A stretch of 64,000 bases of DNA from a phage: sequence record PQ400055.1; one strand, 5' to 3'. The position numbers were made by a program, and so were the translations under genes. Under the pieces are notes generated by a model, which did no database searches, was not told the DNA's origin, and saw only the letters and a list, made by a program, of their open reading frames with translations. Position 1 is the first letter of the stretch; each line of letters begins with the position of its first letter. This document shows, one piece after another, positions 10,600-37,803 of this stretch.

Positions 10600-10604
10600 C
10601 TTAA

Positions 10605-10638
10605 AGGGGAAGCCTTTCGGCCTCCCCTTCTTTTTTAT
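10605..10638 (+). terminator. terminator after holin t, at the convergence with minus-strand genes
   Basis: aggggaagcc-tttc-ggcctcccct followed by tcttttttatt. Confidence 0.75.
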
Positions 10639-10883
10639 TGGCGCATAGAAGCCCCTGAATCACATTTTGACGCTGTATGATGAAAACAGGTAGCGTACCA
10701 GTCATCGGCTTGTTTGTCTTCGTCAGAAAACGCGTAATTGCGTTGTATGCCGTTTTCTACTTTGACCAGTGCAATAGCTGTTTCTGGAAGATCAATCAAT
10801 CGGACAAAATCGCCATCTTCCCATTCTACACGAGCAATATCATAACCCATCTCAAAATAAACAATCGCTTGTTCTAATTTCAT
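10635..10883 (-). CDS. hypothetical protein
   Basis: 82 aa ORF convergent with t; no recognisable similarity. Confidence 0.45.
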   Translation of the reverse strand: MKLEQAIVYFEMGYDIARVEWEDGDFVRLIDLPETAIALVKVENGIQRNYAFSDEDKQADDWYATCFHHTASKCDSGASMRQ

Positions 10884-11212
10884 TCTGGAAACTTCCCGTA
10901 AATGTTCTCTGCTAACATACGCGCATCGCTAATGATATCTTTCATGCTATGACCGTAGTGTTCAGCCATTGAGTTGACACAATCAACAAAGAAATTATAA
11001 CGGCGACGGTTTAAGATTTCTTCTCTGCTATAGTTTTCATATTTGACGGTCGAGTGTGCTTTCTCGATTGCCTTGATTGCTATATTGACTTCATTGATAA
11101 TGGTTTTAGCATTGTATGCGCCACGACGGATCAGGATATTTGTCAATTCTCTTGCAATATCTTGCAATTCTTCATATTCATGTTCAAACATAATCAACCT
11201 CTCAAAATACAA
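10880..11212 (-). CDS. hypothetical protein
   Basis: 110 aa ORF, 4-nt overlap with downstream ORF; no recognisable similarity (not asiA by direct comparison). Confidence 0.5.
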   Translation of the reverse strand: MYFERLIMFEHEYEELQDIARELTNILIRRGAYNAKTIINEVNIAIKAIEKAHSTVKYENYSREEILNRRRYNFFVDCVNSMAEHYGHSMKDIISDARMLAENIYGKFPE

Positions 11213-11215
11213 TCC

Positions 11216-11548
11216 TTACAGATGAAAACCTGTTACGATCACCGCATCGATCTTACCGCTAGGAATAAACGGTTCGCCCTCTTTTATTTCAACTTTGAAT
11301 TGATGCCATTTCGCTAATACTTCTTCCGGTACACCCAGCGATTCGGCGTCTGCTTTAGTTTCATCCATAATCCAACTAGGCTGCATGAGAGCATAGTTTA
11401 CATAGTCCATTTCTGGGGTCATGTCATCAATGTTAATATATTTGCAGTTGACGCGTTTCAGAATTTCAAATTCTTTATTGTCAACCTGTACCATGTATAA
11501 TTCAGTAGTTTCTGGAATCAGTTCCCACACAATCAGTACATTTTTCAT
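11216..11548 (-). CDS. hypothetical protein
   Basis: 110 aa ORF in tightly packed minus-strand gene array. Confidence 0.5.
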   Translation of the reverse strand: MKNVLIVWELIPETTELYMVQVDNKEFEILKRVNCKYINIDDMTPEMDYVNYALMQPSWIMDETKADAESLGVPEEVLAKWHQFKVEIKEGEPFIPSGKIDAVIVTGFHL

Positions 11549-11556
11549 AGTTCACC

Positions 11557-11925
11557 TCACTTAACAAAGATTTTCTTTAATGCTTTCAAGATCGTTGCTT
11601 CCGGCGCTTCTTCCGGTGGAGGAAGCAATTCTACCACTTCCTCTTCCAACTCGATATAGTCTACCAGATATTCTACATAGAATGCAAGTGCTTCCATGAA
11701 ATTAGATGCTACATCCGATTCGCCACACGCGCCCACATGCATTGTATAAACATCACTGCGATCAAGTTTGTGGATGCTTCCCAGATAGTTCCGGTTATAC
11801 CAGACTTCCCACACTTTCAGCTTTCCGGTTTTGGTTGCTGTTTTATAATCGGTTTCGTAATGATGCAATTGACGTTGCAAATCATTGATAATAACACATT
11901 TTTCGTAATTGTTTTGAATTTCCAT
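11557..11925 (-). CDS. hypothetical protein
   Basis: 122 aa ORF with acidic C-terminal tail. Confidence 0.5.
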   Translation of the reverse strand: MEIQNNYEKCVIINDLQRQLHHYETDYKTATKTGKLKVWEVWYNRNYLGSIHKLDRSDVYTMHVGACGESDVASNFMEALAFYVEYLVDYIELEEEVVELLPPPEEAPEATILKALKKIFVK

Positions 11926-11935
11926 GATGTAATCC

Positions 11936-12127
11936 TCACTTATCGTTAAGAAGTTCTAAAACTTTCTGTCGTACTTTGTCAATATTAGTTGATTCAAAAA
12001 CTGTACGGTATCCCCAGCTTTGACCGTATGAGCGGTTGCAATCTCCATATCCCCATTGTTCAACCTGATAGTATTCAAGGAATGGATGCTGCCGAACTAT
12101 GATACCATCGCGATTAAAAATTACCAT
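11936..12127 (-). CDS. hypothetical protein
   Basis: 63 aa ORF; RBS gaggat upstream. Confidence 0.4.
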   Translation of the reverse strand: MVIFNRDGIIVRQHPFLEYYQVEQWGYGDCNRSYGQSWGYRTVFESTNIDKVRQKVLELLNDK

Positions 12128-12150
12128 AATATAATCCTCACGTCAACAAC

Positions 12151-12438
12151 TTATTTTCGGTTGTGGTCACGATATGTTTTAAAATATCCCTCGTACCACG
12201 GTAAAACATCTGGATTTTTACCACTATACAGACCTTTAACCATCATGTCAATAAGGCCATCTGGTGTTTGATAGTTTCCAGCTTTTATAAGCTCTCTGAT
12301 TAAAATCTCTCTGTATATGTCTTTCGGATCTTCGTAATCAACTTGTATTGTGGTTGTGGTCTCATTCAATTTGGTTTCTGGAGTATCTCGCATTGCATCC
12401 CACCAATCTTTTGTGACCTTCATGTTATTGAATTGCAT
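12151..12438 (-). CDS. hypothetical protein
   Basis: 95 aa ORF. Confidence 0.45.
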   Translation of the reverse strand: MQFNNMKVTKDWWDAMRDTPETKLNETTTTIQVDYEDPKDIYREILIRELIKAGNYQTPDGLIDMMVKGLYSGKNPDVLPWYEGYFKTYRDHNRK

Positions 12439-12449
12439 AATTTAACCTC

Positions 12450-13208
12450 TTACTTGCAAACGTATTGATCTACATCAATTGCGCCACCGAATGTGGGATG
12501 ACGTTTTTCAAATCGAATAGTTCCGTCGTTTGGTTCGAAAACGGAGTATTCATATAGATCTTTCTTGCCAACATTCTTATAAAACCCGCCTTTCGTCATA
12601 ACGGTTTCTTGTACGTTTGCTTTGTGTACGTTGTATTCATCAATGTATACAAAATCAACCATCTTCCCATTTTTAATGGTTACTTTAAGATCCCCTGGCT
12701 GGTTTCCATATTTTGCATACAGTGGAGCCTCTTTAATTTTTGTGGAAATTCCATCTTTCATACTCCACTCATAACGAACGGTGCATTGATAGGTAAAAGT
12801 TTCGACCTTCGGTTCTTCTACCACTTTTGCTTCCTGTTTCGGTTGTTCTTCTTCAACCTTCGCAGAAGTCTCTGAATCGCTTTCTGACGCGGTTTCTTCT
12901 TTAGGTAATACATTCATCAAGTTTTGGATTTGAGCGTTATATACAGCCTCCAGTGGCTGAATCTGCCCGATATTGATCATTGTATCACGAACAGTTTTAT
13001 TCCAGTTTCGTTGCTCTTGTTTCAGAGACGGATCAATCTTAACAGCCTTAACATACACCTCATGAAGTTTAGAGTCCAGTGCGGAGATAGACTCATTAGC
13101 ACAAATAAACTTCTCTGATTTGGTAGTAGCTTTAGCGCAATCAAAGGACGCAGCGTTAGCACCGAAAGCAGTAGCAGAAAGAACGATAGCAGCGATAATG
13201 TTTTTCAT
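12450..13208 (-). CDS. secreted protein with LprI/DUF1311-like (lysozyme-inhibitor-type) N-terminal domain
   Basis: 252 aa; signal peptide MKNIIAAIVLSATAFGANAAS; motif FDCAKATTKSEKFICANESISALDSKLHEVY...EQRNWNKTVRD fits the DUF1311 pattern; preceded by promoter cassette at 13237-13271. Confidence 0.6.
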   Translation of the reverse strand: MKNIIAAIVLSATAFGANAASFDCAKATTKSEKFICANESISALDSKLHEVYVKAVKIDPSLKQEQRNWNKTVRDTMINIGQIQPLEAVYNAQIQNLMNVLPKEETASESDSETSAKVEEEQPKQEAKVVEEPKVETFTYQCTVRYEWSMKDGISTKIKEAPLYAKYGNQPGDLKVTIKNGKMVDFVYIDEYNVHKANVQETVMTKGGFYKNVGKKDLYEYSVFEPNDGTIRFEKRHPTFGGAIDVDQYVCK

Positions 13209-13236
13209 AATATATTCCTCAGTGTTTTGTCTTGAT

Positions 13237-13271
13237 GGGAGTATCTTACTACTCCCTTAATCCGGTGTCAA
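13237..13271 (-). promoter_or_regulatory. sigma70-type early promoter cassette with palindrome around the -10
   Basis: Minus strand TTGACA-17-TAAGAT; inverted repeat GGGAGTA/TACTCCC brackets the -10. Confidence 0.6.
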
Positions 13272-13282
13272 CTACTTTTAAA

Positions 13283-13603
13283 TTATTTTCGCCATTCACC
13301 GGAAACAATAAAGTTTGTAAAGTGATCGTGGTCCATGATAACGTCATTAAGTACCATATGTGGATACACTTTAGTGATAATTTTACTAAGTACCATATGC
13401 GGATATGCTTTAGTGTAATCACGTTTACGATCAGTCATCCAGCCAACGAAAGTTGGTGCAAAGTACGGTACACCGTCAGACGATGCCATATTAAACCCTT
13501 TATCAACCATAAATGCAGCCGCCCTAAGATTTTTAATTGAAGTAGTGCGACTAATTTCAAAAACTTTATCGGTAAAATTCATTTTAAGCCCCCGCTCGTG
13601 CAT
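13283..13603 (-). CDS. hypothetical protein containing a 13-aa tandem duplication
   Basis: 106 aa ORF; in-frame 39-bp tandem repeat at 13348-13422 (KAYPHMVLSKIIT / KVYPHMVLNDVIM). Confidence 0.45.
   Translation of the reverse strand: MHERGLKMNFTDKVFEISRTTSIKNLRAAAFMVDKGFNMASSDGVPYFAPTFVGWMTDRKRDYTKAYPHMVLSKIITKVYPHMVLNDVIMDHDHFTNFIVSGEWRK
13348..13422. repeat. 39-bp tandem direct repeat (2 copies) inside a coding region
   Basis: taagtaccatatgtggatacactttagtgataattt / taagtaccatatgcggatatgctttagtgtaatcac. Confidence 0.6.
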
Positions 13604-13793
13604 TAATACGCATTTTCTGTATAGCCATGATCTGGTTTACTGCTTCTTCTTTACGTTCTTGCGTGATAATGTGACCAGATTCCGCAAACTCTCCAGCAAC
13701 TTCTTCTACGATCTCGCGAACTTGAGAACGTCCAAAGATGCGGTTTCCTTCGTAGCTCATAAACTCTGTTACTACTTGCTCGATAGATTTCAT
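13584..13793 (-). CDS. hypothetical protein
   Basis: 69 aa ORF preceded by promoter cassette and RBS aggag. Confidence 0.5.
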   Translation of the reverse strand: MKSIEQVVTEFMSYEGNRIFGRSQVREIVEEVAGEFAESGHIITQERKEEAVNQIMAIQKMRINARAGA

Positions 13794-13815
13794 GTGATTC
13801 TCCTTTCGTTTGGTA

Positions 13816-13850
13816 TGGGAGTATGTTACTACTCCCTTATCTTTACGTCA
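13816..13850 (-). promoter_or_regulatory. sigma70-type early promoter cassette with palindrome
   Basis: Minus strand TTGACG-17-TAACAT; GGGAGTAgtaacaTACTCCC; then conserved leader and AAGGAG. Confidence 0.6.
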
Positions 13851-13858
13851 ACTAGTTT

Positions 13859-14101
13859 TTAGAAATTTTTCGCTTCTTCTTCGGTCATCATAACCGCGCA
13901 TTCGTGCATAACTTTGAAAACCGGATCAATCATGTCGAATGCTTCGCGGGACAGTTTACGAGAAGCGATTTTGATTGCTTCTACGTCTTCTACTACAGGA
14001 ACAAAAACAGTTTTCAGTTCGTCGAGGACGGCAGCTTCTTTTTCATTCAGGAAGATCCCAGCGTCGTACAGTGCAACTTCGATAACATTAACTTTAACCA
14101 T
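13859..14101 (-). CDS. hypothetical protein (start moved to internal ATG)
   Basis: ORF track gives 13859..14164, but that start overlaps the -35 of a promoter cassette; internal ATG at 14101 has RBS ggagg. Confidence 0.5.
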   Translation of the reverse strand: MVKVNVIEVALYDAGIFLNEKEAAVLDELKTVFVPVVEDVEAIKIASRKLSREAFDMIDPVFKVMHECAVMMTEEEAKNF

Positions 14102-14128
14102 TTTTATTTCCTCCAGTTCGTTTCGGTA

Positions 14129-14165
14129 TGGGAGTATAATACTACCGATGACCTTTGGCGTCAAC
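14129..14165 (-). promoter_or_regulatory. sigma70-type early promoter cassette
   Basis: Minus strand TTGACG-18-TATTAT followed by ACTCCCATACC. Confidence 0.5.
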
Positions 14166-14365
14166 TAGTTTTTTGTTATTTTCGTGAAATTTTTCGTCGC
14201 CTCATGTGCTTTTCGCTGGGCTTCTTGTTGTGCTTGCTGGCGTGCTGCCTCTTGCGATGTCATAACAGACGCATTTGCAGCAGTTACAGCCGCGACCATC
14301 GCTGCGGTATTAGCATTTACCGTACATGCACTAGCCAGCAAAGCAATCGCAATCATTTTCTTCAT
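14165..14365 (-). CDS. small secreted protein
   Basis: 66 aa; N-terminal signal peptide MKKMIAIALLASACTVNA; Ala/Gln-rich mature part. Confidence 0.5.
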   Translation of the reverse strand: MKKMIAIALLASACTVNANTAAMVAAVTAANASVMTSQEAARQQAQQEAQRKAHEATKNFTKITKN

Positions 14366-14601
14366 AGTTTCCCCTTTAGGTTATCTTCGACCTTCACCCA
14401 TTCCGCGTATTCTTGCGCGGCTACTTTCGGATTTAAGCCGTCTTCGTACATTGCTTCAAGTAATTCTTCGTCGGTGGGCTTATACCCTAGATAAGCCTCC
14501 ACCTGATTTTTCCAAATTTTATACCAGTTCATATTATCACCAATCAAGAGCGCGTGTCTCTGCGTCTTCCCATGCTTGATCCATAACAGCCTTGAAAACA
14601 T
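14362..14601 (-). CDS. hypothetical protein
   Basis: 79 aa ORF; 4-nt overlap with downstream ORF. Confidence 0.45.
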   Translation of the reverse strand: MFSRLLWIKHGKTQRHALLIGDNMNWYKIWKNQVEAYLGYKPTDEELLEAMYEDGLNPKVAAQEYAEWVKVEDNLKGKL

Positions 14602-14808
14602 ATTCTAGAGTATCATCTTTAGAGAATCCGAAGACCTTAGACGGAATATCTTCAATTGCTACTCCCGCAACTTCTGCATTACGCGCTTGGCAATAATGCA
14701 ACTCTAAGTTATCGAGATAGCGACCGCCTAATTTCTCCATATCATCCCAGCATTTCCAGTAACCTACTTTATCTGCAATTGCCAACACTTTGCTGTTTTC
14801 GTTGTTCA
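14537..14808 (-). CDS. hypothetical protein (start moved to internal ATG)
   Basis: Internal ATG at 14808 preceded by ggagaatcaaag RBS and promoter cassette; track start 14872 lies inside the promoter. Confidence 0.5.
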
Positions 14809-14834
14809 TCTTTGATTCTCCTTTTGTTTGGTAT

Positions 14835-14869
14835 GGGTGTATTATGCAATGTTGGATTCTGTAAGTCAA
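14835..14869 (-). promoter_or_regulatory. sigma70-type early promoter cassette
   Basis: Minus strand TTGACT-17-CATAAT then ACACCCATACCAAAC...AAGGAG...ATG. Confidence 0.55.
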
Positions 14870-14882
14870 CAACTTTTTAAAA

Positions 14883-14910
14883 TAAAAAAGCCGACCACAA
14901 GGATCGGCTT
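14883..14910 (-). terminator. rho-independent terminator (minus strand)
   Basis: Minus-strand aagccga-tccttgtgg-tcggctt followed by ttttttatttt; same stem as the gene 35 terminator. Confidence 0.7.
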
Positions 14911-14919
14911 AATAATCAG

Positions 14920-15315
14920 TTACTTACTAAATTTCTTTTTGGCTTCGTCTACTGCATGAGATGCCAGCACCGCTGCCGCATGTGCACTTTTATCTGTGTT
15001 GCAGAGAACACCCAGATAAACATCACGCCAAAGTTTAATCATCTCGTAGATCATATCAATATCATTTTCTTGTTTGTTGGCGATGCTATTCGTCGTTATC
15101 TGGTAAGGCAACGGCTTGATCTGTACTGGTTCAGCCATCGGGCTAATCGGTTTCGGATCAGTCATAATAGGTGCTGTTGTTGGTGGTGTTTTCCATACAC
15201 CATTATTCCACGGTTTAATCGTTGTGTCGTAAAGTTTATAAGGATTTTTGTCTGGGTCAACCATCCATGCATGATGAGTACCCAAACCATTTGAAGTGAT
15301 GCGTCGTTCAGTCAT
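14920..15315 (-). CDS. hypothetical protein
   Basis: 131 aa ORF followed by a rho-independent terminator. Confidence 0.5.
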   Translation of the reverse strand: MTERRITSNGLGTHHAWMVDPDKNPYKLYDTTIKPWNNGVWKTPPTTAPIMTDPKPISPMAEPVQIKPLPYQITTNSIANKQENDIDMIYEMIKLWRDVYLGVLCNTDKSAHAAAVLASHAVDEAKKKFSK

Positions 15316-15318
15316 AAT

Positions 15319-15522
15319 TTATTTCCTCTCTGAAAATTCTTTCATCAAGCTGTCGATCTTTGCTCTGTGTTCTGGTGTGTTTGTCATCTCTGCTAATTTG
15401 CTCAGAGATTCAATAGTGATCCGGTTGGCTTCTTCCATAGTCTCAACGACCATTGGCACAATCTTTTTATTGTTGTACACAAATGCAATATAACCGCCTT
15501 CTGGATATTCTTTCATAATCAA
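15319..15522 (-). CDS. hypothetical protein
   Basis: 67 aa ORF directly downstream of gp52. Confidence 0.45.
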   Translation of the reverse strand: MIMKEYPEGGYIAFVYNNKKIVPMVVETMEEANRITIESLSKLAEMTNTPEHRAKIDSLMKEFSERK

Positions 15523-16865
15523 CCCTTCTTAAGTTCTTTAAGATCTTTCTTATATTCCTTCATTGCGGTCGTCTTTGTCCAATACTCATATTCACTATGA
15601 TGTTTATCGGCATCTTTGACCAGTCGATCATACTCTTCTTGAGTAACGCTATACAATGGCATAGAAACTAGCTTATCGGCGTATGGACGCAGTTTTTCAT
15701 GTCCATTGATGGATTGCATTACCTCGGCCTTTTTCTTGCCCTGTAGCTCGATTTCGCCCTTAATTACGCGGTCGATAAATTCGGCTTTAGCCATTGCATA
15801 ATTGTATGCTTCCAGCGTTTCCGCTTGCATCAATTCAATGCGTTTATCGACATACCCTAATCGGATTTCGACGAATCGACGGATCAGATCGCTCGCTTTC
15901 TCGAATACTTCTACTAAACCACGTTCATTAACCACTACGATATTCTGGGCTACTAACTGTGTTAGTTTAAAATCCTTCATGATTTGCTCATGTCGAGCGG
16001 ATTCATCTTCGCTTTTGAAATAATCGCGTTTCAGTGTTACTTCAAATCTGAATCCGTCCTTAGAGCAACGGTCATTATACGATACAATCAGATCTTTTTC
16101 TTCCAGTGCATCCAGTACCGCTACATATTCTTCACGGTCGAACTTATAAGGAACTTCTGATATTGTCAGTTTAGTCTTGCCGTTTAGTTCATATGTACCC
16201 TCAAGAATCACACCATCGCGATCATCTCGCGGGATAACTTTACCCGTGAATTTCGGGAATTGAACATTAGGTTCTTTATCCAGTTTTCCGGCAAGTGCTA
16301 GCTCTGTGCATTCAATAAGGCTTTCCAGTGAATGCGGTAAAATGTCAGTTTTATACCCTGAAGCAATACCACTAATACCATTAGCCAATACCATTGGCAC
16401 AACTGGCAAGTAGAACGCTGGCGGGATGTGTTCCAGATCTTCGTGCTTAGGTGCGCAATTCATATCTTTATAGATTTTAAAGAAGTTTTCATGCACACGA
16501 GCAAAGATATAACGTGCCGCTCCTGCTTTCTGGACTAAACGCGATCCGAAGTTACCTTGACCGTCAAGCAGTGGAGTATTATTGCTCCATGTATTCGCCA
16601 TGAGTGATCCGGCTTCTACGGCATTAGTTTCGCCGTGGTGATACCCCAACTCAGCGACACCAGATCCAATATCTGCCATCTTACGGAATTTCTTACGGTC
16701 GCCTTTACTCTTTTGCAAAGCACATTCCATAACAAAGCGTTGCACTGGTTTAAGCCCATCCACTAATTGAGGAATCCCGCGTTCCTCGGCAGAATAGATC
16801 GCATATTCCTTAGCTTCATTATGTACAATGCTTTCAAGGCTGCGGTAAGTAACTGATTTATTCAT
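15519..16865 (-). CDS. 52: DNA topoisomerase II medium subunit (gp52)
   Basis: GyrA-like motif GLKPVQRFVM as in T4 gp52 (GFKPVQRFVIA); about 448 aa from the ATG at 16865, which has RBS gaggtg (track start 16880). Confidence 0.88.
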   Translation of the reverse strand: MNKSVTYRSLESIVHNEAKEYAIYSAEERGIPQLVDGLKPVQRFVMECALQKSKGDRKKFRKMADIGSGVAELGYHHGETNAVEAGSLMANTWSNNTPLLDGQGNFGSRLVQKAGAARYIFARVHENFFKIYKDMNCAPKHEDLEHIPPAFYLPVVPMVLANGISGIASGYKTDILPHSLESLIECTELALAGKLDKEPNVQFPKFTGKVIPRDDRDGVILEGTYELNGKTKLTISEVPYKFDREEYVAVLDALEEKDLIVSYNDRCSKDGFRFEVTLKRDYFKSEDESARHEQIMKDFKLTQLVAQNIVVVNERGLVEVFEKASDLIRRFVEIRLGYVDKRIELMQAETLEAYNYAMAKAEFIDRVIKGEIELQGKKKAEVMQSINGHEKLRPYADKLVSMPLYSVTQEEYDRLVKDADKHHSEYEYWTKTTAMKEYKKDLKELKKG

Positions 16866-16872
16866 CTTCACC

Positions 16873-17235
16873 TCATACACGCTTACAAATCACATTCTTT
16901 ACTTTATCAGATTTATCAGCCCAATCCAATAGCCATTTTAACGGAAGGATTGACACAATAAACGGGGCAGCAATCAAAGCAAACATGATACACCTGATAA
17001 TCAGGAAAACGCAAGTGACAAAACTAGCGATAGTGATCCCGACAAAACAAAATACCATAGAAAACAGAGTAATGATATAGAAAGGCCAGAATACCCACTC
17101 CCGCATCTTAACGCCTTTGTATTCTCTGAATTGCTTAAAATCTACAAACAACTCTCGGATAGACGCGTACAGGACCGAAAAATCATCTTTCATTGCTCTG
17201 AATGAGCAATCTTCTATTTTAGAATGACCTAGCAT
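16873..17235 (-). CDS. hypothetical membrane protein
   Basis: 120 aa with multiple hydrophobic segments. Confidence 0.5.
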   Translation of the reverse strand: MLGHSKIEDCSFRAMKDDFSVLYASIRELFVDFKQFREYKGVKMREWVFWPFYIITLFSMVFCFVGITIASFVTCVFLIIRCIMFALIAAPFIVSILPLKWLLDWADKSDKVKNVICKRV

Positions 17236-17237
17236 TA

Positions 17238-17531
17238 TTAACCGCCTTTAACCATTGATACAGGAATTGTTTTCTGATTTGTGTATAAGTGGCCTACTTC
17301 AATTTTTTCTTGAATCACCACGACGTTACAATATCCACTGTCTTTAAGTTTTCTGATAATGACTCGCTTTTGTTCGTCGGTGATAGGATTGACTGTTCTC
17401 ACCAATTCACCGCAAATAATAGCACCATCTTTACAATTACCAGTAACTTTCATGCTACGACCGTGAACAACAACCACGTCACCGTAAATCACATTTTCGT
17501 CGTCGTATTTGGTAATAACCGTGACCGTCAT
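17238..17531 (-). CDS. hypothetical protein
   Basis: 97 aa ORF; RBS agaggg upstream. Confidence 0.5.
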   Translation of the reverse strand: MTVTVITKYDDENVIYGDVVVVHGRSMKVTGNCKDGAIICGELVRTVNPITDEQKRVIIRKLKDSGYCNVVVIQEKIEVGHLYTNQKTIPVSMVKGG

Positions 17532-17576
17532 AATATATTCCCTCTAAGAAAGGCCGCGCAAAGCGGCCTATGTTGA

Positions 17577-17903
17577 TTATTGTTCTACAGTATAACCGTT
17601 GTTTTCAAGCCATGCAATAACAATCTTTTCGCCAATTTCATCGAGCATTTCATCAGAGCCATATTCTTTGATGAAAGTCGATGGATCATTATTGCTTACT
17701 ACGTGCTGGATCACAACATGTTCAGGAATTGCGTCTAGTAGTTCGCTATGATCATACTCATTAACGATATCTTCAACACTAACATTATTAACCAAATCAA
17801 CATCATCCATAGTCACAGTAACGCGACCGGACGGACGCAATGAATATTGGCTACTTTCAACTTCAACATGTGCACTTTCGCAAGTAACTTTCATATCAAC
17901 CAT
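17577..17903 (-). CDS. hypothetical acidic protein
   Basis: 108 aa ORF; RBS agagg upstream. Confidence 0.5.
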   Translation of the reverse strand: MVDMKVTCESAHVEVESSQYSLRPSGRVTVTMDDVDLVNNVSVEDIVNEYDHSELLDAIPEHVVIQHVVSNNDPSTFIKEYGSDEMLDEIGEKIVIAWLENNGYTVEQ

Positions 17904-17917
17904 AATTAATTCCTCTG

Positions 17918-18920
17918 TTAGTAATGGCTAAAACCTTCGGTTACATCTTCAACCACATAGTAACGATGACAGCGCATTTTGGCATTCGCATAATCTTTCG
18001 GGATACTTACAACGTGACGCGGATCAACTTTACATTTAATGATTCGGCCTCGTCCACCGCCATAGTGCGGAATATAGTGTTTAGCTGCAACGTGGAGGCC
18101 ATTAGAGCAAGTGCGATCATCATCTGGGTCCACGTCTTTACGCTTCATTTTAACCGTGCGACCTGGGCTATTATCAAACGTATGCGTAAAGAAATCTTTA
18201 TAATCAACATCAACACGTTTCCATGCATAGAAACAACCATCTTCCACGATCTCAATGTCGTTGTGCTCTAAGAAGTCAAATAGACGATCTACGGCCTTAC
18301 GGCTAGGGTTTTTCTTGCACTTCTCAAAGAAGTTAAGATAGTGCGTATATGGCTTATTCTCTTTAATCGACTCCACAACTCGACGAGTCAGATTATTATC
18401 AAGAACAATATTATGATAATACACAATACCATTTTCGATACGGAAAGCGCCGTGATAATATACTTCAACCGCTTTCTTAATGTCAATCAGCGTAATAGCT
18501 TTGATGAAATCATTATGTTTAATCGCTTCCAGTGCTTCCTTAAAGTTAACATGTGATGGATCAGCAGTATAAACAATGTCACCACATGTAATAGTAATAA
18601 ACTTAGTTGAGGCTATGGCTACGATTTTTGAGGAAGTAGTTACGGGCTTTTTTTGCGCGTTCACCGCCTTTTCCTTTACTGGTTTTACGGCGTGCTTTAC
18701 GTTTTTCTAGTGCCTTGCGACCTTCCGCTACTGCGTCTTTCTGAATCAGTAATACACGGGAGGCAGTGCGACGAGATACACCAAATGCTGCCGCAAGTGC
18801 TTCGCGGGTAGTAAACTTACCTTCGCCCCACTGTTTAGCCAGTTTGATTTGTTTCGCAGAATCCAGACATTGAACGTTACGGTCAGAGACGGTGATTTTT
18901 GCTTTAGTCATAGTATTCAT
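17918..18920 (-). pseudogene. rIIB: rIIB split across two frames at an A7 run (frameshift mutation, homopolymer sequencing error, or recoding)
   Basis: N-terminal ORF 18603..18920 has the rIIB-like HTH (REALAAAFGVSRRTASRVL vs T4 QELADWQGVSVDTIRRVL); C-terminal ORF 17918..18664 matches T4 rIIB (RLFDFL..DIEI.EDG.FYAWK, FDN.PG..VKMKR.DVDPDD, DYA.AKMR); removing one A at 18648-18654 joins them as ...ERAKKPVTTSS..., ~333 aa. Confidence 0.8.
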
Positions 18921-18973
18921 TCCTCTATTAGTTGGGCGACTATTGCCGCCCGATTCACATCATTATACCAGAA

Positions 18974-19105
18974 TTATTTTGCTTCGACAACCTTGCGGAT
19001 TGTGCGGTCTGATACATTATAGATTCGTGCCAGTTCGCCTTTAGTCAAACCGCGAGCGTATTGTTTACGGATGGTTTCTTTCTGGATGGCGGTCAGTTTA
19101 GTCAT
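18974..19105 (-). CDS. small HTH protein resembling the rIIB N-terminus (not in ORF track)
   Basis: 43 aa, MTKLTAIQKETIRKQYARGLTKGELARIYNVSDRTIRKVVEAK; RBS aagaggtg; resembles T4 rIIB LTKNEQAEIVKLYSSGNYTQQELADWQGVSVDTIRRVL. Confidence 0.45.
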   Translation of the reverse strand: MTKLTAIQKETIRKQYARGLTKGELARIYNVSDRTIRKVVEAK

Positions 19106-19116
19106 AATATCACCTC

Positions 19117-21231
19117 TTAAAATTTAACATTCTTAACCAGTTTCATAAAGTCTTGTGCGCGTTTGTCATTATGCAGAATACGATACCAGTTATCGACAAT
19201 ATCATACAGTAACGGGCTATTCTCTTTAAACTTCGCACAAACTGCTTTAATTCGTTCGTTTGCTACCGTGAATTTTTCATCACAAATCTTTTTAGTTTCT
19301 TCGTCCATAATCCAACGAGTACGAAGGAGTAACTTGGAAACCTCTTTATTATAATGACGACCGTACAGTCTGTCAATAAATTCTGGAACACAGCGTTCTA
19401 GTTCATCGTCATGAAACAACATAGTGATCACACCCAGATATTCGCCATACCCCAGATGATTGGTCTTAACCTTCTTAGCCAGACCAGCCAGCTTACCGCG
19501 AACAAATTCTAGCGCACATTCCAATTGTTCGTCAACGAGATATTTTTGTGTCTCGTTTCGAGTAATAATATACTTTGTTACCCCGAAGTAGTCAAGCGCC
19601 GTGTGTAATGTATTTTCACTATGGATCGATTTACGACTACGGCTTTCGAATGCATCACCTACGCGGAACATGTGCAAGCCTGATAACTCGCGAATCTCTG
19701 CCGCTTTCATGTGATGGCTGGTTTTATGCCAACTGTCACCAATCTTTTCCATGATATACACGTTAGGCAGCTTAGGAGTCGCTTCACGTTGTGTACGTGT
19801 ACGCTCGGTCTTCTCCGGTTTAACTGCTTTAGCACGCAGATCATCGGCCTCAGAAACTTTAATCACGGTCATTTCAGAATCATCATAATACTGTTTGATG
19901 TACTCGAAAGTTTCCATATGTTTTTCGTTGCGCTGACGGAACACCAGTACCTTTTTATTGATGCCGTATTCCTGGACCATACCGTTAAGAGTCAGTGCGC
20001 GTAGTTTCGGTTTATCGGTATCATCAATAAGACACATAATATCTTCTTTATGCATCCATACAAAATGCGTAATGTTGTATTGACTGCTAACGAAAGCAGG
20101 GCGCAATTTACTGATTGTGTGACGAGTACGATACAGAGTATACACCTGACCTTCTACGTCATTAGGCGAATCTTTACCCGCATTCACAAACTTATTATAG
20201 ATTGCTACCGGATCATCCCACTGCCCGATCTTACCCATCTTGCTAATAATATTGCGTTGAGTCGATGAATACTCGCTCATAAATTGCGCAAGTTTACGCT
20301 CTGTTTTAATGTTGGCGATCTTCTCTTTGACCTTTTCCAACATCATTTCATTGATTTCTGCAATGCGTTTTTCGATGTTCGCTTTAGTCTCAATTGACAA
20401 GTGAACTTCTTCACGCGATGGCATCAGGTCCAGATCACCCAACTCAAAATTAATGTAAATGGTCTGGTGCTGGCGGTTTACAGCTTCTAACCATGTTCCG
20501 CGAACATATTCATACGGGATCGGATACTGGATCTTACCCATGATTGCATATACTACATAGGAATCGTTATCACGCCCATTACAAACATAATAATTATCAA
20601 AGCTAGGGAAATAATTAATTTCGATTGCATTGATATTAGGTTTGTGTTCCCCAAAATGACGCAGTACAAATTGCGCTTCTCGATGCCATGTCTGAATATC
20701 TTTTTCTTTCACCGGAATAGTGATTTTCAGACCATTGTCTTCATAGGTCGGTTCGTCGAAAATCTGCACCATTTTCGGCATAGAGTTTTGCACAAATGCC
20801 GTAAAGCCATAAGCGCGACCATTGTAATAGTTTACGATTGTAAAGGTGTCAGTGTAGCTATAAGCAGATTTCGCACCTAAACCAAAAGACCCGATATAGT
20901 CATTAGTCTGGTCTTTTGTTGATTCAAAGTAAACCGTAAACAGTTGTTCTAATTCTTTCTTAGACGGAATACCAGTACCATAATCACGCACAGAGAAATA
21001 CGGTTCGATTGCAGTCGGTAAATGAATATCAAACGGACGATCTAAGGTTCCGGCTTCTTTGTGAGTGTCGGTAGCATTGCACGAATACTCACGGACGCAA
21101 GCACGCTCACAATATTGATAAGTGTTCTTAGAAAGCACCATAAAAGCCTTGCTACTTGCTTTCAGTGAAAAATCAACCGCACCGCTCAGGTCACTGCCAA
21201 ATACTTCTTCATTATCAATATGCATTTTCAT
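19117..21231 (-). CDS. rIIA: rIIA protector from prophage-induced early lysis
   Basis: 704 aa (T4 725 aa); N-terminal block DYGTGIPSKKE...YIGSFGLGAKSAYSYTDTFTIVNYYNGRAYGF matches T4 rIIA DFGPGMS...[32 protein letters not shown]. Confidence 0.9.
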   Translation of the reverse strand: MKMHIDNEEVFGSDLSGAVDFSLKASSKAFMVLSKNTYQYCERACVREYSCNATDTHKEAGTLDRPFDIHLPTAIEPYFSVRDYGTGIPSKKELEQLFTVYFESTKDQTNDYIGSFGLGAKSAYSYTDTFTIVNYYNGRAYGFTAFVQNSMPKMVQIFDEPTYEDNGLKITIPVKEKDIQTWHREAQFVLRHFGEHKPNINAIEINYFPSFDNYYVCNGRDNDSYVVYAIMGKIQYPIPYEYVRGTWLEAVNRQHQTIYINFELGDLDLMPSREEVHLSIETKANIEKRIAEINEMMLEKVKEKIANIKTERKLAQFMSEYSSTQRNIISKMGKIGQWDDPVAIYNKFVNAGKDSPNDVEGQVYTLYRTRHTISKLRPAFVSSQYNITHFVWMHKEDIMCLIDDTDKPKLRALTLNGMVQEYGINKKVLVFRQRNEKHMETFEYIKQYYDDSEMTVIKVSEADDLRAKAVKPEKTERTRTQREATPKLPNVYIMEKIGDSWHKTSHHMKAAEIRELSGLHMFRVGDAFESRSRKSIHSENTLHTALDYFGVTKYIITRNETQKYLVDEQLECALEFVRGKLAGLAKKVKTNHLGYGEYLGVITMLFHDDELERCVPEFIDRLYGRHYNKEVSKLLLRTRWIMDEETKKICDEKFTVANERIKAVCAKFKENSPLLYDIVDNWYRILHNDKRAQDFMKLVKNVKF

Positions 21232-21245
21232 AATATAATCCTCAC

Positions 21246-21503
21246 TTAATTAAAATCTTCTTTGTCCATCTCTGCGTAGATTACATCCCACGCCCATAAA
21301 TCAATAAACGCATTATATGTCACGGTGCAATCGTTGTCAATCACTTCTTTCGCATATTTCTTGATGTTTTCGTAGGAAACTTGCGGGTCAATTTTGTGTT
21401 TACGAAGGTGCGCATATTCATATCTCAGACATTTCATAAACAGGTCCATCGATTTCTTTTCTCGATGACACTTGGCGATCATAAAATCAAAACTTCGACT
21501 CAT
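21246..21503 (-). CDS. hypothetical protein (rIIA.1 position)
   Basis: 85 aa ORF immediately upstream of rIIA. Confidence 0.5.
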   Translation of the reverse strand: MSRSFDFMIAKCHREKKSMDLFMKCLRYEYAHLRKHKIDPQVSYENIKKYAKEVIDNDCTVTYNAFIDLWAWDVIYAEMDKEDFN

Positions 21504-21514
21504 TTTTCTACTCC

Positions 21515-21709
21515 TTATACATTTTCAATTACCCATTGCAGATGGGCTTCTGCGTCAACCAGTTCAGCGCGGCTTTTCTCTAAGCACTTGCTGTATTCTT
21601 TACGTTCCCACTCGGCAATTTCGTTTTTCAGGACTTCTTCATAGTAAGCAATTACGCCTTTCAGGTCTGAAACTTTACGGCTTGCCAATTCGATGTAATG
21701 GTTACGCAT
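21515..21709 (-). CDS. hypothetical protein
   Basis: 64 aa ORF, predicted helical. Confidence 0.45.
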   Translation of the reverse strand: MRNHYIELASRKVSDLKGVIAYYEEVLKNEIAEWERKEYSKCLEKSRAELVDAEAHLQWVIENV

Positions 21710-21896
21710 TTTGATTCTCCTTTGTTACTAGATAACGAATTTGGTCTTGCATTGCGATCAGTTCCCAGCGTGCTACTTTCATCATGGAAACTGACTCTTT
21801 GAACATAATATTAGCTTTTTCCTTCTCCCCTGTCAAGTAGATTTCTGCAATTTTTTCACAAAATTTTTGAGTTTCTTCATTCTTAAACGGTTTCAT
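21702..21896 (-). CDS. hypothetical protein (start at ATG 21896)
   Basis: Track start 21905 is TTG; ATG three codons downstream, preceded by promoter cassette. Confidence 0.45.
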   Translation of the reverse strand: MKPFKNEETQKFCEKIAEIYLTGEKEKANIMFKESVSMMKVARWELIAMQDQIRYLVTKENQNA

Positions 21897-21920
21897 ATAA
21901 GTCAACCTTTTGTTTTCGAT

Positions 21921-21955
21921 GGGGACATTATGATATATCCCCGATCCAGTGTCAA
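21921..21955 (-). promoter_or_regulatory. sigma70-type early promoter cassette with palindrome
   Basis: Minus strand TTGACA-17-CATAAT; GGGGA...TCCCC brackets the -10. Confidence 0.55.
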
Positions 21956-21962
21956 CAGATTT

Positions 21963-22262
21963 TTAATCTTTTTTCAATGCATCCATTACTCGCTCTGCGA
22001 TCAGTTCTCGTAAGCACTGATAACCATGATATTTGATGGCAATGTCACGCAGATCATTAACCAGTTCCCGTACTTCATGGTCTTTCAGATCGTCTCTGTA
22101 TTTCGATTTAACCGTGTCTTTAGGTGGATTGTGGATAACCTGAAAACCTTGTTCTGCAATCACTGCGGCTTCTCGCTGGCGTTCATGTTGTACTGTATTT
22201 TTTATCAGGTCTACTTCCATGAACTTTGTCATACTCATCATCATGTTATTCTTTTTGCTCAT
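21963..22262 (-). CDS. hypothetical protein (start moved to internal ATG)
   Basis: ATG at 22262 with RBS gaggat; longer track ORF would run through the promoter cassette and the end of gp39. Confidence 0.5.
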   Translation of the reverse strand: MSKKNNMMMSMTKFMEVDLIKNTVQHERQREAAVIAEQGFQVIHNPPKDTVKSKYRDDLKDHEVRELVNDLRDIAIKYHGYQCLRELIAERVMDALKKD

Positions 22263-22284
22263 TATTAAATCCTCATAAACGAAA

Positions 22285-22324
22285 AGGGAGACTCCCATTA
22301 TAGAGAATCTCCCTTGTATGTCAA
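22285..22324 (-). promoter_or_regulatory. sigma70-type early promoter cassette with palindrome, downstream of gp39
   Basis: Minus strand TTGACA-16-TATAAT; GGGAGA...TCTCCC inverted repeat. Confidence 0.55.
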
Positions 22325-22327
22325 GTG

Positions 22328-24151
22328 TTATGATTGCATCCAAATTTTGCGGCGGTCTGAATCTTCGCTATAGAGCAAATCGAATAGCTCTTTATAGTTT
22401 TCCGGTAACGTGATGATTTCCATTACAGGATCGTTGATCACGCGATGATAATCTGATTCTGTAAGAGATGCTAACCCTTTGATATATCGAATGCTATAAC
22501 CTTTGATATTATCTCGGTCGTTCTCGAAATCTTCTAGGTCATAATACCATCGAACATCATCACCTTTCTTTGGTTCCGCAATGATAATAGGTGTTTTGAT
22601 AAACCGGATTCGTCCATCTTCGAACAATTCAGGCCAACGTGCAAAGAAAGAGATCAGACTAGGTTTAATAGACCCGATCCCGTCAGTATCAGCGTCTGTC
22701 ATAATCGCAATATTTTTGTATTGCATAACTTCCAATGCATCAACACCAAATTGCAAACCAGTGATCGCCATGATGTTAAAAATTTCGGCGTTCTTAACGA
22801 TCTTTGCCTCCGGTTGTTCCCACGTTGTAAGAGTTTTGCCTCGCAACGGGAAACCTCCATGTAAATCTGGATCACGTACAGAGACCAGATAGTTGATCGC
22901 GGAATCACCTTCCGTCAAAAACAGGGTAGTTTCTGCGTCAGTTCCAATAAGGTTAGCTTTAACGTGTTTTGCTACCTTAGCCCGTTTCGCTGCTTTGGCT
23001 GCCTTAGTCGCTGCCGCTTTATCTGCTGCCTCTTTGCGTGCCAGGACTACAGCAATAATAGGCATGATAATGTTTTCTTTCTTCGCAATGACTTTAGCCA
23101 GCTTTTTAAAATCAAGATCAATATGACGCTTGATATCACCAGTTGGATTAGTCAATCGTTCTTTTGTCTGTGAATCAAAACGAAGGTTAGGCAATTCACG
23201 AACAATAAGAATACAGGTCAATCCAGACTTAACCGCAGCTTTAGTAACATCAACCTTATGTTCTTTCTTGATTCGTTTTACAATCTCTTCACAAAGATCA
23301 TCTGTCACGTAGTCTACGTGTGTTCCCCCGTTTTTGGTAAACAGACCATTAGCAAAGGATACTGATTTAAAACCTTCTCCCTCGACCGCAGGAACTAGGG
23401 CAAGTGAAAAGTTTTTATCTTCAATGACAAACGGATCATCATTGTATAGTTTAGCATAATCCTTGAACTTACTAACAATACGTTTACCATTAAACTTAAA
23501 CGTGATCTTAGGAAAGATTACGCTCAATGATTGCAGACGATCATGAACAATATCTAAAACAGAGTTGTCCATCATATAACCTTCGAAGTGGTCGAAGTCT
23601 GGACAAAATGTAACCTTTGTTCCCTTCAATTTTGATGGTTTCGATGACCATGTGATATTTTCAGCACCGTTTGTACATTGAACGGTCATTTCTGTTTCTC
23701 CGTCACAGGTCACACCAGTAAACCAATCGCTAAAGAAATTTGACAACGACGACCCCACACCGTTCATCCCTTGCGTTAATCGATTGGTATCATCAAAGTT
23801 AGACCCTGCTTTTGTTCGTGTCCATGCGGCTACAGGTTGCGGAATCTGCGTGCCCTCTGGGGTAGTAACCATATGTTGAGGAATACCGCGACCGTTGTCT
23901 GTTACCGTAACAATATTGTTTTGGATATCGACGCTAATCACATTGGCAAATTCAAAATTAGTGCGAATCGCCTCGTCTACAGAGTTGTCGATGATCTCAT
24001 CAATGATTTTAACCAGTCCTGGAACATATGAAATTTTTGTCCATTTACCGAACAGGAAACGTTGGTGTTCTTCGTAAGTTGTTGATCCTATATACATTCC
24101 TGCACGCTTAAGGACATGTTCACGATCAGATAAAATGCGAAACTCACTCAT
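22328..24151 (-). CDS. 39: DNA topoisomerase II large subunit (gp39 with fused gp60 portion)
   Basis: 607 aa; N-terminus LSDREHVLKRAGMYIGSTTYEEHQRFLFGKW...GLVKIIDEIIDNSVDE matches T4 gp39; C-terminal TOPRIM-like IAIMTDADTDG; one continuous ORF. Confidence 0.9.
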   Translation of the reverse strand: MSEFRILSDREHVLKRAGMYIGSTTYEEHQRFLFGKWTKISYVPGLVKIIDEIIDNSVDEAIRTNFEFANVISVDIQNNIVTVTDNGRGIPQHMVTTPEGTQIPQPVAAWTRTKAGSNFDDTNRLTQGMNGVGSSLSNFFSDWFTGVTCDGETEMTVQCTNGAENITWSSKPSKLKGTKVTFCPDFDHFEGYMMDNSVLDIVHDRLQSLSVIFPKITFKFNGKRIVSKFKDYAKLYNDDPFVIEDKNFSLALVPAVEGEGFKSVSFANGLFTKNGGTHVDYVTDDLCEEIVKRIKKEHKVDVTKAAVKSGLTCILIVRELPNLRFDSQTKERLTNPTGDIKRHIDLDFKKLAKVIAKKENIIMPIIAVVLARKEAADKAAATKAAKAAKRAKVAKHVKANLIGTDAETTLFLTEGDSAINYLVSVRDPDLHGGFPLRGKTLTTWEQPEAKIVKNAEIFNIMAITGLQFGVDALEVMQYKNIAIMTDADTDGIGSIKPSLISFFARWPELFEDGRIRFIKTPIIIAEPKKGDDVRWYYDLEDFENDRDNIKGYSIRYIKGLASLTESDYHRVINDPVMEIITLPENYKELFDLLYSEDSDRRKIWMQS

Positions 24152-24250
24152 TATTAAACCTCTTCATAACATAACCATAACTTACTGCAACCGCCACAAA
24201 GACGGCTGCAACAATCATATTAAAAATTGAGTGATTGTCAAGTATATGAC

Positions 24251-24424
24251 TCATGACACGCGCACATTTTTATCGTAATACCCGCCATTAATCCCGCGCG
24301 GGGCAGTTAATCCCTGTTTACATTCTTTCCCACATTCAGGGCATTCTGCCTTTTCACGCTCGGAAATTTTGCGGATTTTCTGAAATTGACCGTGTTCTTC
24401 ACAAGAATAATCGTATAATGGCAT
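24251..24424 (-). CDS. FmdB-type zinc-ribbon protein
   Basis: MPLYDYSCEEHGQF...CPECGKEC fits the FmdB zinc-ribbon pattern; start assumed at the internal Met of the 84-aa track ORF. Confidence 0.5.
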   Translation of the reverse strand: MPLYDYSCEEHGQFQKIRKISEREKAECPECGKECKQGLTAPRGINGGYYDKNVRVS

Positions 24425-24425
24425 A

Positions 24426-25094
24426 TTATCCCCTTTGTTTCTTAACTGAATTTGGATCTGGATTTTCTGGTAGGTCTTCCAGACCCATAGCATAACGTTG
24501 TGCATAGATTAGCATAAGAATATCGCGAGCGCAATCATGAATTGCATCATGTGCGATAAAACCATCTAGCGTACCCATTGGTAACGGACACTCACACATC
24601 CCGCGATGCATCAATGTACGCTCAATGGCGGTGCGAACATCTCGGATATTCCAGAATCGCACAGGTTCAAGATTGAACGTCTCTCGTGTATTGTGTGCAC
24701 GGCGGATCATATCAACTAGTAACGGAATATCAAACGCATTACCGCGTGACCACAATACGGATTTAACCGGATCTACCCCTACGGCTTCACAGAATGCGTT
24801 AAAACGCGCTAAACCTTCTTTAGTTGATACTTCCGTACCATTTGTGATTAATTGCTTTCTCATGCCTTCTGAGGCGGTATTCTTCCACCATTCAACCACA
24901 CCATGATCAAACACCCTTACACCTTTCTGGGAAGGAATATCAAATTTTACCAGAAAGGAATTGTCAACCAGTTCTTTAAATGTAGGTGGGTTGTGCGGAT
25001 CTTCTTTAAATCCGATTGCCGCCATATTGATAACCGCCCCATCAGGCGGATAACCTAAACTTTCAAAGTCAATCATTAAATCCACTGGAAGCAT
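24426..25094 (-). CDS. dexA: exonuclease A (DEDD 3'-5' exonuclease)
   Basis: MLPVDLMIDFESLG exonuclease motif; ~222 aa from the ATG at 25094 with RBS ggagga (T4 DexA 227 aa); position between 39 and dda. Confidence 0.75.
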   Translation of the reverse strand: MLPVDLMIDFESLGYPPDGAVINMAAIGFKEDPHNPPTFKELVDNSFLVKFDIPSQKGVRVFDHGVVEWWKNTASEGMRKQLITNGTEVSTKEGLARFNAFCEAVGVDPVKSVLWSRGNAFDIPLLVDMIRRAHNTRETFNLEPVRFWNIRDVRTAIERTLMHRGMCECPLPMGTLDGFIAHDAIHDCARDILMLIYAQRYAMGLEDLPENPDPNSVKKQRG

Positions 25095-25095
25095 T

Positions 25096-25515
25096 TTAAA
25101 TATCCTCCGCGATATGCCGGAACAACTCCAGATCGTTTTTATCCAGAATGAAACCGCTACAATCAATAATCCCGTTACCGTAATTATCGGTTAACAGTCG
25201 TTCCGTTGCCATGTATGCGCGTACTTTGTTGTTAAAATTCATTACATGTTGTGCATAGTCACAATGAATCTTTTGACGGTTCCACGCGACAATTGATTGT
25301 AGATGTATTACATTAGCCACATTATTAATAACAACCATATCAAAACCCTCGCTTAGTGGAATGTTCTGACATTTTATTGATACATACAGCTTGGTAGTCA
25401 CGAGATTTTTTGACGAATTAAGAGCTACGGCCAAAAAATCCTGTAACTGTTCGTTTGTCATTGTTGGCTTACACCGCGTATCTAAACTCTTCTTTCTTCT
25501 AGCTTCATTAGCCAT
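25096..25515 (-). CDS. hypothetical protein containing an internal duplicate of its own RBS/start cassette
   Basis: 139 aa ORF; ~55-bp direct repeat at 25339-25395 and 25516-25575, each ending in gagggttttgatATGg. Confidence 0.45.
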   Translation of the reverse strand: MANEARRKKSLDTRCKPTMTNEQLQDFLAVALNSSKNLVTTKLYVSIKCQNIPLSEGFDMVVINNVANVIHLQSIVAWNRQKIHCDYAQHVMNFNNKVRAYMATERLLTDNYGNGIIDCSGFILDKNDLELFRHIAEDI

Positions 25516-25575
25516 ATCAAAACCCTCGCTTAGTGAAATATTCGATCATTTTATTGATACATTCAGCTTCACTGT
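25339..25575. repeat. ~55-bp direct repeat pair carrying RBS and start codon
   Basis: Copies at 25339-25395 and 25516-25575, ~85-90% identical by eye. Confidence 0.55.
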
Positions 25576-25694
25576 CGCCGGATACGTTCCATCCATAATG
25601 ACCCCAACTAAAACACATGGTAACAGTTCCATTGTGACGGCGTACCGTCACTTCGTCAAATTCGGGGATACTTCGCATAATCATAATAATTTCC

Positions 25695-27086: not shown

Positions 27087-27400
27087 TATCCTAAAATCCT
27101 CACCTTGCGAACACAGATAGTATTGAGTTCTCGCCGTACCCGTTCTTTTTCATATTCAGGAATTTTATATTCGATACCATCCCGAACAATTTCAGAAGAC
27201 CGGATTATGCCAAATTTTCGTTTAGGTACAACCTTGTATTTCGGTTCACCAGCCAATAGACTCTCACAATAATCTATCTGATCACACATTGACGCTAACG
27301 CAGCATCATGTGTTTCGCAAGTTAGGACGCGACCTTTCGCGTCCACTGAGTATTGAAAGAATCCGTCTTTATCACGATAACATACAGCAAATACATGCAT
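27086..27400 (-). CDS. hypothetical protein (dda.1 position)
   Basis: 104 aa ORF. Confidence 0.5.
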   Translation of the reverse strand: MHVFAVCYRDKDGFFQYSVDAKGRVLTCETHDAALASMCDQIDYCESLLAGEPKYKVVPKRKFGIIRSSEIVRDGIEYKIPEYEKERVRRELNTICVRKVRILG

Positions 27401-28155: not shown

Positions 28156-28179
28156 AATTGATTCTCCTTAGTTGGTATG

Positions 28180-28213
28180 TGTGTATTATTGTCTATCTGG
28201 TTTGTGCTGTCAA
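28180..28213 (-). promoter_or_regulatory. sigma70-type early promoter cassette
   Basis: Minus strand TTGACA-17-AATAAT then ACACACATACCAACTAAGGAG...ATG. Confidence 0.5.
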
Positions 28214-28216
28214 CAC

Positions 28217-28720: not shown

Positions 28721-28727
28721 AATAAAA

Positions 28728-28781: not shown

Positions 28782-28789
28782 ACTAATTT

Positions 28790-29314: not shown

Positions 29315-29322
29315 CTCATTAA

Positions 29323-37771: not shown

Positions 37772-37803
37772 AATATAAACTCCTTCACTTACGAAAGACA
37801 CTC

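Follow-up and report, generated by a model that had tools for sequence, protein, structure and literature searches.

An extra A in a homopolymer run splits rIIB in the genome record of an RB49-like phage

The rII genes of phage T4 hold the classical homopolymer frameshift hot spots, known from Benzer's hot spots, the Streisinger slippage model and the Crick-Brenner rIIB series. In recent work on phage contingency loci, phage runs of at least six bases were reported to undergo +/-1 mutation at ~3e-4 per tract, and an engineered A6-to-A7 null allele of T4 rIIA showed ~10,000 times more reversion than a point mutant (Gomez, Barrick and Waters, bioRxiv 10.1101/2025.10.21.683753). Selection for escape from a CARD-gasdermin defence readily yields early rIIB frameshifts in T6, and phages can do without rIIB in hosts that lack RexAB (PMC10312443). 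Advantages of the ON and OFF states under different host defences are found in the literature for T4 and T6 (PMC10312443; bioRxiv 10.1101/2025.10.21.683753). Here we describe a stretch of phage DNA (record PQ400055.1; 64,000 nucleotides, referred to as the window) in which rIIB is split across two reading frames at a run of seven A. The gene and the genus are known and the lesion is a textbook one; it is either an rII homopolymer frameshift or a routine assembly error, both of which are already familiar.

The window derives from a member of Krischvirus (RB49-like T-even phages of E. coli, Straboviridae). Megablast searches with positions 17500-19300 and 10000-30000 against 50,697 phage records gave best matches of 99.6% identity over 1.8 kb and 99.2% identity over 97% of 20 kb, respectively, and no identical phage record was present among the 50,697. 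The genes of interest are all on the minus strand, in the order topoisomerase gp39 (22328-24151), rIIA (19117-21231), a 43-aa ORF (18974-19105), rIIB, three small ORFs and topoisomerase gp52 (15519-16880). At the rIIB locus this order matches that of the annotated phages kvi and PTE-Eco09. In the early region of T-even phages rIIB is expected to follow rIIA, as it does here. Its upstream partner rIIA is intact (704 aa), has annotated orthologues in kvi and KFS-EC, and shows weak matches to GHKL-ATPase Pfam families.

The interrupted rIIB gene occupies 1003 nt of the minus strand (17918-18920). The 5' fragment (18603-18920) is an ORF of 105 aa with an ATG start, and the 3' fragment (17918-18664) is a mechanically called GTG-start ORF of 248 aa. 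They lie in different frames, with a 62-nt overlap around the A7 run; on the plus strand this run appears as T7 (18648-18654) between a C and a G. On the coding strand the context is GGT GAA CGC GCA AAA AAA GCC CGT. Within the rIIB frame of 333 codons the run falls on codons 89-91, and it is one base longer than the A6 of relatives. Residues 1-91 of the 105-aa ORF are the native RIIB N-terminus (a putative HTH followed by a basic linker); its last 14 residues, ARNYFLKNRSHSLN, are out-of-frame read-through of the RIIB linker, and it ends GGERAKKARNYFLKNRSHSLN at a TAA stop (18603-18605). The 248-aa ORF begins MNAQKKPVTTSSKIV, corresponds to native RIIB from Pro92 on, and holds the whole conserved core. 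GTG is its sole start type; the one at 18664 has a weak Shine-Dalgarno sequence (AAGGA, 7 nt upstream). With one A deleted the gene becomes 1002 nt and a single ORF of 333 aa, with the junction GGERAKKPVTTSSKIV. A preliminary description of this DNA had placed two rIIB ORFs in different frames overlapping at A7 and had joined them by removal of one A; on recheck all of its coordinates were correct, and the 333-aa junction is exactly as it had claimed.

Both ORFs are contiguous parts of one RIIB. The N-terminal ORF matches profile positions 741-816 of PHROG 609, "RIIB lysis inhibitor" (E 6.8e-5), the C-terminal ORF matches positions 807-1051 (E 2.5e-97), and the intact protein of kvi covers 743-1051 in a single stretch (E 4e-106). 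The C-terminal ORF also matches four other RIIB PHROGs. After repair of the run, the protein is identical to the RIIB of kvi at 333/333 residues, and that protein shares 44% identity with T4 RIIB over 321 aa (BLASTP, E 6e-85). No RIIB match was returned by Pfam, NCBIfam or PDB sequence searches. The N-terminal HTH label reflects sub-threshold Pfam matches only (aa 37-57, E 0.004-0.08, below gathering scores). The profile matches, the similarity to T4 and the perfect repair bear out the earlier assignment of the gene as rIIB, split by one extra A. Relatives encode rIIB as one CDS and the window does so in two frames; the window thus contains an interrupted allele, or an interrupted record, of rIIB.

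The HTH-like segment and the RIIB core are separated by a basic linker of poor conservation, and the frameshift site falls in this linker. Distant RIIB homologues (from Felixounavirus, Vequintavirus, Listeria phages and others) align only from about aa 91-115 onward. The preliminary description had drawn a parallel between the repaired junction and T4 RIIB, and this is only partly right: the T4 segment EEAKRPKVTISGD does lie in the same linker, but BLASTP places it opposite EKRKARRKTSKG, ~15 residues upstream and off the junction. Like the T4 rII hot-spot mutants, the window has an rIIA/rIIB pair with a +1 change in an A run early in rIIB, before the conserved core, and T4 rIIB also has an early A6 run (nt 253-258, TCT AAA AAA TTC). 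The two tracts are not homologous, however, as Lys90-Lys91 of Krischvirus aligns ~20 residues upstream of the T4 Lys-Lys. The present case further differs from the T4 mutants in its genus and in a RIIB only 44% identical to theirs, and in being known from sequence alone.

Comparison with relatives indicates that the split is private to this genome and very recent. In an alignment with RB49 (OZ035808), kvi and KFS-EC there is a single gap, which falls in the run, and all three have A6. In a megablast search of the 50,697 phage records, an 81-nt query centred on the run matched 49 Krischvirus records, every one of them over 80 nt, and no record was at least 99% identical to it. These 49 records were judged by match length, and 13 sequences were read directly at the tract. 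The directly read set includes Sf20, MIZ6, PHB13 and 011D4, which the 81-nt query had missed, as well as a contig from IMG/VR and two from metagenomes, which were picked up with an exact pattern that accepted A6, A7 or A8 (A6-A8). All 13 have A6, in the form GCA AAA AAG CCC (Ala-Lys-Lys-Pro). The comparison of run length proposed at the outset therefore gave A6 in every relative read directly, and an A7 allele was found nowhere else among the 49 records judged by length, the 13 sequences read or the matches to the A6-A8 pattern. Where annotation was read (kvi, KFS-EC, PTE-Eco09, Sf20, MIZ6, PHB13 and 011D4), rIIB is one intact CDS of 993 or 1002 nt. The preliminary description had also allowed for a conserved pair of distinct genes at this site in relatives; the search for such a pair was negative, with one intact rIIB CDS throughout.

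The extra A is the sole lesion in rIIB. Relative to RB49 OZ035808, the gene of the window has two synonymous changes in addition to it, and in the comparison with 11 relatives synonymous differences far exceed non-synonymous ones, both before and after the run. We infer that selection acted on the 333-codon frame until very recently. An old pseudogene was considered and rejected, as the gene has no further lesion and its repair yields the kvi protein with 100% identity.

A real mutation by replication slippage is the reading that we favour, by a narrow margin, and we give it about an even chance. DNA polymerase would have slipped on the conserved A6 and added one A, by the classical Streisinger mechanism, within the Lys-Lys codons of the linker that joins the HTH-like region to the RIIB core. 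The published slippage rate, the escape of T6 from CARD-gasdermin by rIIB frameshifts and the dispensability of rIIB where RexAB is absent together provide a route to such an allele and a selective reason for its fixation. The T6 escapers (PMC10312443) offer a parallel, as these carry an early rIIB frameshift as their sole mutation and are viable without RexAB; they arose under laboratory selection against a defined defence.

The main alternative is a miscall of homopolymer length, and we rate it as a serious possibility with somewhat less than an even chance. The phage would then truly have A6 and an intact 333-codon rIIB, and the split would exist only in the record, the seventh A having come from an over-call by long-read or flow chemistry or from incomplete polishing. 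The pattern is that of assembly pseudo-frameshifts, in which a one-base change in a run of 6-7 bases breaks an otherwise perfectly conserved gene. The difference from relatives is indeed a single base in a run of the longest homopolymer class of the window (7-base runs, of which there are only three), A7 is unique among all other sequences of the tract examined, and the protein without the extra A is 100% identical to that of a relative.

An indel census of the whole window against kvi, RB49 OZ035808, LF73P4 and PTE-Eco09 bears on both readings. The 64 kb contain 39 runs of at least six bases. For 36 of them the length is matched by one or more of these four close relatives, and the three that deviate are the rIIB A7 run and those at 25406-25411 and 50875-50880. 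Among the 104 kvi CDSs in the syntenic stretch, two change frame in the window: rIIB and a 58-aa ORF (ortholog of kvi_151) at 25406. The runs at 25406 and 50875 each depart by one base from the kvi length, on flanks that otherwise match kvi; the nearest haplotypes are those of kvi and PTE-Eco09. These two coding A-runs, like that of rIIB, are thus one base off, as scattered errors would be. Furthermore, a low-divergence block at 12-36 kb has ~10 private substitutions relative to the four relatives, set against two frame-changing run differences, a ratio that also suits a miscall.

Against a miscall, the deviating lengths at the other tracts recur in independent records and can thus be natural alleles. 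The 25406 tract is A6 in the window and in Ec_Makalu_002, A7 in kvi, GEC-3S and PTE-Eco09, and A8 in ECD7. The 50875 tract, A6 in the window and A5 in kvi, is A6 in W115 too, and the T4 loop variant at 39812 is common to kaaroe, FL15, FL37 and FL38. A first census had suggested four window-private homopolymer changes; once the variants at 39812, 50875 and 25406 were found in other phages, this number was reduced to one, and the rIIB A7 is the one truly unique run in 64 kb. The variants at 25406 and 50875 look like independent events, although they could also be miscalls. Judging from the tract at 25406, with its A6, A7 and A8 forms, real variation in A-run length does exist in this phage group.

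With 36 of 39 runs corroborated, and the other two variants present in other phages, the assembly does not appear generally error-prone; the window also contains no ambiguous bases. One uncorroborated run in 64 kb is fewer than an error-prone assembly from long reads only usually leaves, and the agreement of the other long runs with relatives means that there is no wider error signature of the kind that assembly pseudo-frameshifts would lead one to expect. That only one run is unique speaks mildly for a real mutation. Miscalls of A7 are very rare in assemblies from short reads. Exact-protein look-ups with both fragments (with either start codon) and with rIIA found no second assembly of this genome and no reads. 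A broken rIIB was seen in none of the other Krischvirus sequences examined, which shows that such alleles are rare among isolates and counter-selected in nature; a miscall predicts the same picture. All readings other than a real slippage mutation or a miscall are, even taken together, quite improbable.

If the mutation is real, the A7 allele is predicted to be an rIIB null or a strong hypomorph, since ribosomes that begin at the rIIB start add 91 native residues and 14 aberrant ones before they meet a stop codon, which leaves the core (residues 92-333) out of frame. Traces of full-length RIIB might be made from transcripts with one A fewer, or by a +1 slip of tRNA-Lys. Weak independent initiation at the GTG at 18664 is also conceivable, in which case the allele could be hypomorphic. 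The start of T4 rIIB is itself dispensable, as in the deletion r1589. By analogy with T4 and T6, the phenotype would be rII-like: lambda lysogens would restrict growth through RexAB, and defences triggered by RIIB might be evaded. Lysis timing may differ, and reversion to A6 would be expected at high frequency.

The isolate would then be an RB49-like phage with an rIIB mutation that arose in nature or in the laboratory. This would be relevant to phage users (in therapy cocktails or host-range studies, for example), and would offer an example outside T4 for the recent idea of phage contingency loci. If the extra A is an artefact, the record needs correction, with rIIB annotated as one gene of 333 codons. 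In either case what is known of rII and of recoding is unchanged, and no new kind of gene expression is involved.

A stronger form of the slippage reading holds that the A6 run of rIIB is a working contingency locus, that switching between A6 and A7 toggles RIIB, and that this isolate was caught in the OFF (A7) state. We consider this unlikely. As in the phage contingency loci described by Gomez, Barrick and Waters (bioRxiv 10.1101/2025.10.21.683753), an A6 run lies in an rII gene and the A7 form would be null, and a trade-off is plausible for both: RIIB would be needed against RexAB-type exclusion and yet would trigger RIIB-sensing defences such as CARD-gasdermin. The OFF allele would directly encode, as its 105-aa HTH-only product, what the intact allele might make by -1 slippage, and it would be slightly leaky for full-length RIIB via +1 or transcriptional slippage. 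That study, by contrast, concerns T4 rIIA, with measured reversion, and mentions neither rIIB nor Krischvirus; ours is a comparison of sequences only. A repeat of at least six bases inside an ORF, as used there to define such loci, is present here (A6 in relatives, A7 in the window), and membership in the class appears to fit on this trivial criterion only. The rIIB tract is of constant length in more than 50 relatives; the tract at 25406 varies between A6, A7 and A8.

Slippage-dependent expression as an evolved feature, another suggestion of the preliminary description, fares much worse. Programmed frameshifting or RNA-polymerase slippage would join the two frames, so that a short HTH protein and full-length RIIB are made in a set ratio. 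Both tRNA-Lys and RNA polymerase can slip on an A7 run, which makes a low level of rejoining likely on general grounds. There is a likeness to -1 frameshifting of the dnaX / IS911 type at A_AAA_AAG and to slippage on long A/T runs, as the run encodes lysines and the A_AAA_AAG of the intact relatives is phased as a slippery heptamer for -1 shifts would be. Unlike at such sites, however, the split is not conserved (every relative examined has an in-frame A6), and the tract is not conserved at the aligned position of T4 rIIB. The shift is also in the wrong direction: the frames of the window would be joined by +1 or -2, or by an mRNA with one A fewer, and not by the -1 of the heptamer. No stimulatory downstream structure is predicted: folds of 58, 88 and 141 nt do not exceed shuffled sequences in stability (z scores of +0.54, +1.46 and +0.82). 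The sequence GCA AAA AAA GCC permits re-pairing of tRNA-Lys, and lacks the hungry or stop codon of prfB-type +1 sites. Efficient transcriptional slippage is known mainly at runs of 9 or more. We therefore rejected an evolved recoding site, as the two defining features of the class, conservation and structure, were tested for and are absent; its probability is very low.

In the intact relatives, a -1 slip at A_AAA_AAG would yield exactly the 105-aa product of the window, and there is no sign that it is used.

That the locus comprises two separate overlapping genes, for a small HTH protein and a RIIB-core protein, has a negligible probability: the two modules can exist apart, given the stand-alone 43-aa HTH gene just upstream that resembles the T4 RIIB N-terminus and the many distant phage homologues that match the core only, but we rejected this reading because all relatives with annotation that was read have a fused single CDS and because the tail of the N-terminal ORF is out of frame (with the lone GTG start and weak Shine-Dalgarno sequence of the C-terminal ORF also against it).

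The 43-aa HTH mini-gene between rIIA and rIIB belongs to PHROG 15481 (E 3e-34), has CENP-B_N/HTH Pfam matches, and shows 41% identity to the N-terminus of T4 RIIB over 39 aa. It is annotated as a separate CDS in kvi, KFS-EC, Sf20, MIZ6, PHB13, 011D4 and PTE-Eco09. This mini-gene is conserved, and it is untouched by the rIIB frameshift.

The coding-strand A-run at 25406-25411 lies among the small minus-strand genes in the interval from the dda helicase to dexA, within an ORF at 25096-25515. Its length differs among related phages, with six A in the window and in Ec_Makalu_002, seven in kvi, GEC-3S and PTE-Eco09, and eight in ECD7. A run of seven yields two genes, encoding proteins of 58 aa (phage protein family profile PHROG 37371) and 80 aa (PHROG 15021). 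The six A of the window put the 58-aa gene out of frame past residue 36 and join it to the next gene, forming a 139-aa ORF. Because the flanks of the run in the window are identical to those in kvi, the shortening looks, from sequence comparison, like an event separate from that in Ec_Makalu_002. This tract is a better candidate than the rIIB run for a hypervariable "contingency" tract (a homopolymer with reversible slippage by one nucleotide), or else the site of a recurrent miscall.

A second coding-strand A-run on the minus strand (50875-50880) is located where the ORFs at 50872-51402 and 50375-50875 meet. The window and W115 have six A, and 56 of 57 matched records have five, as judged by match length (kvi was read directly). 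With the extra A, the upstream protein ends in ...SRIKK* instead of ...SRIKNER*, and the ORFs overlap by 4 nt (ATGA) rather than 11 nt. It is probably harmless.

In every relative with an intact rIIB that was read, the tract equivalent to window positions 18646-18655 reads GC-A_AAA_AAG. This is a correctly phased -1 slippery heptamer of the dnaX/IS911 type. Slippage by -1 in the intact gene would yield a product identical to the 105-aa protein encoded directly in the window, and in Sf20 and MIZ6 a GGAGG motif occurs 11 nt upstream of the tract. As no RNA structure was predicted downstream of the tract, we consider the heptamer in the relatives to be probably coincidental.

Between rIIA and rIIB is a conserved stand-alone gene for a 43-aa helix-turn-helix protein (18974-19105, minus strand; PHROG 15481, E 3e-34). 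The protein is 41% identical to the N-terminus of T4 RIIB over 39 aa, whereas similarity to the N-terminus of the adjoining Krischvirus RIIB was not detectable. The gene could be a RIIB N-terminal module that was detached or duplicated. Within rIIA itself, an in-frame tandem duplication of 6 nt relative to kvi (GTGTAC GTGTAC, 19791-19796) makes the protein 704 aa in the window versus 702 aa in kvi; rIIA of PTE-Eco09 is likewise 2115 nt.

The rIIA/rIIB region is rearranged in OL964745.1, a laboratory T4 mutant deposited as "Mutant Escherichia phage T4 clone T4_7t1". The RIIB match in this genome is limited to residues 94-327, and the 1110-nt RIIB CDS shares sequence with the end of rIIA. This record is a precedent for deposited genomes of laboratory phages carrying rII lesions.

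DNA polymerase gp43 is encoded in the window by a single continuous ORF of 902 aa (35093-37801, minus strand). The annotations of kvi and PTE-Eco09 divide it into two CDSs with an insert of ~1.1 kb between them. The insert holds extra ORFs, including kvi_168 (274 aa), which has no match in the window. The difference suggests that some Krischvirus genomes carry a mobile insertion of the intron or homing-endonuclease type, which the window lacks. The insert breakpoint maps near window positions 36569-36578.
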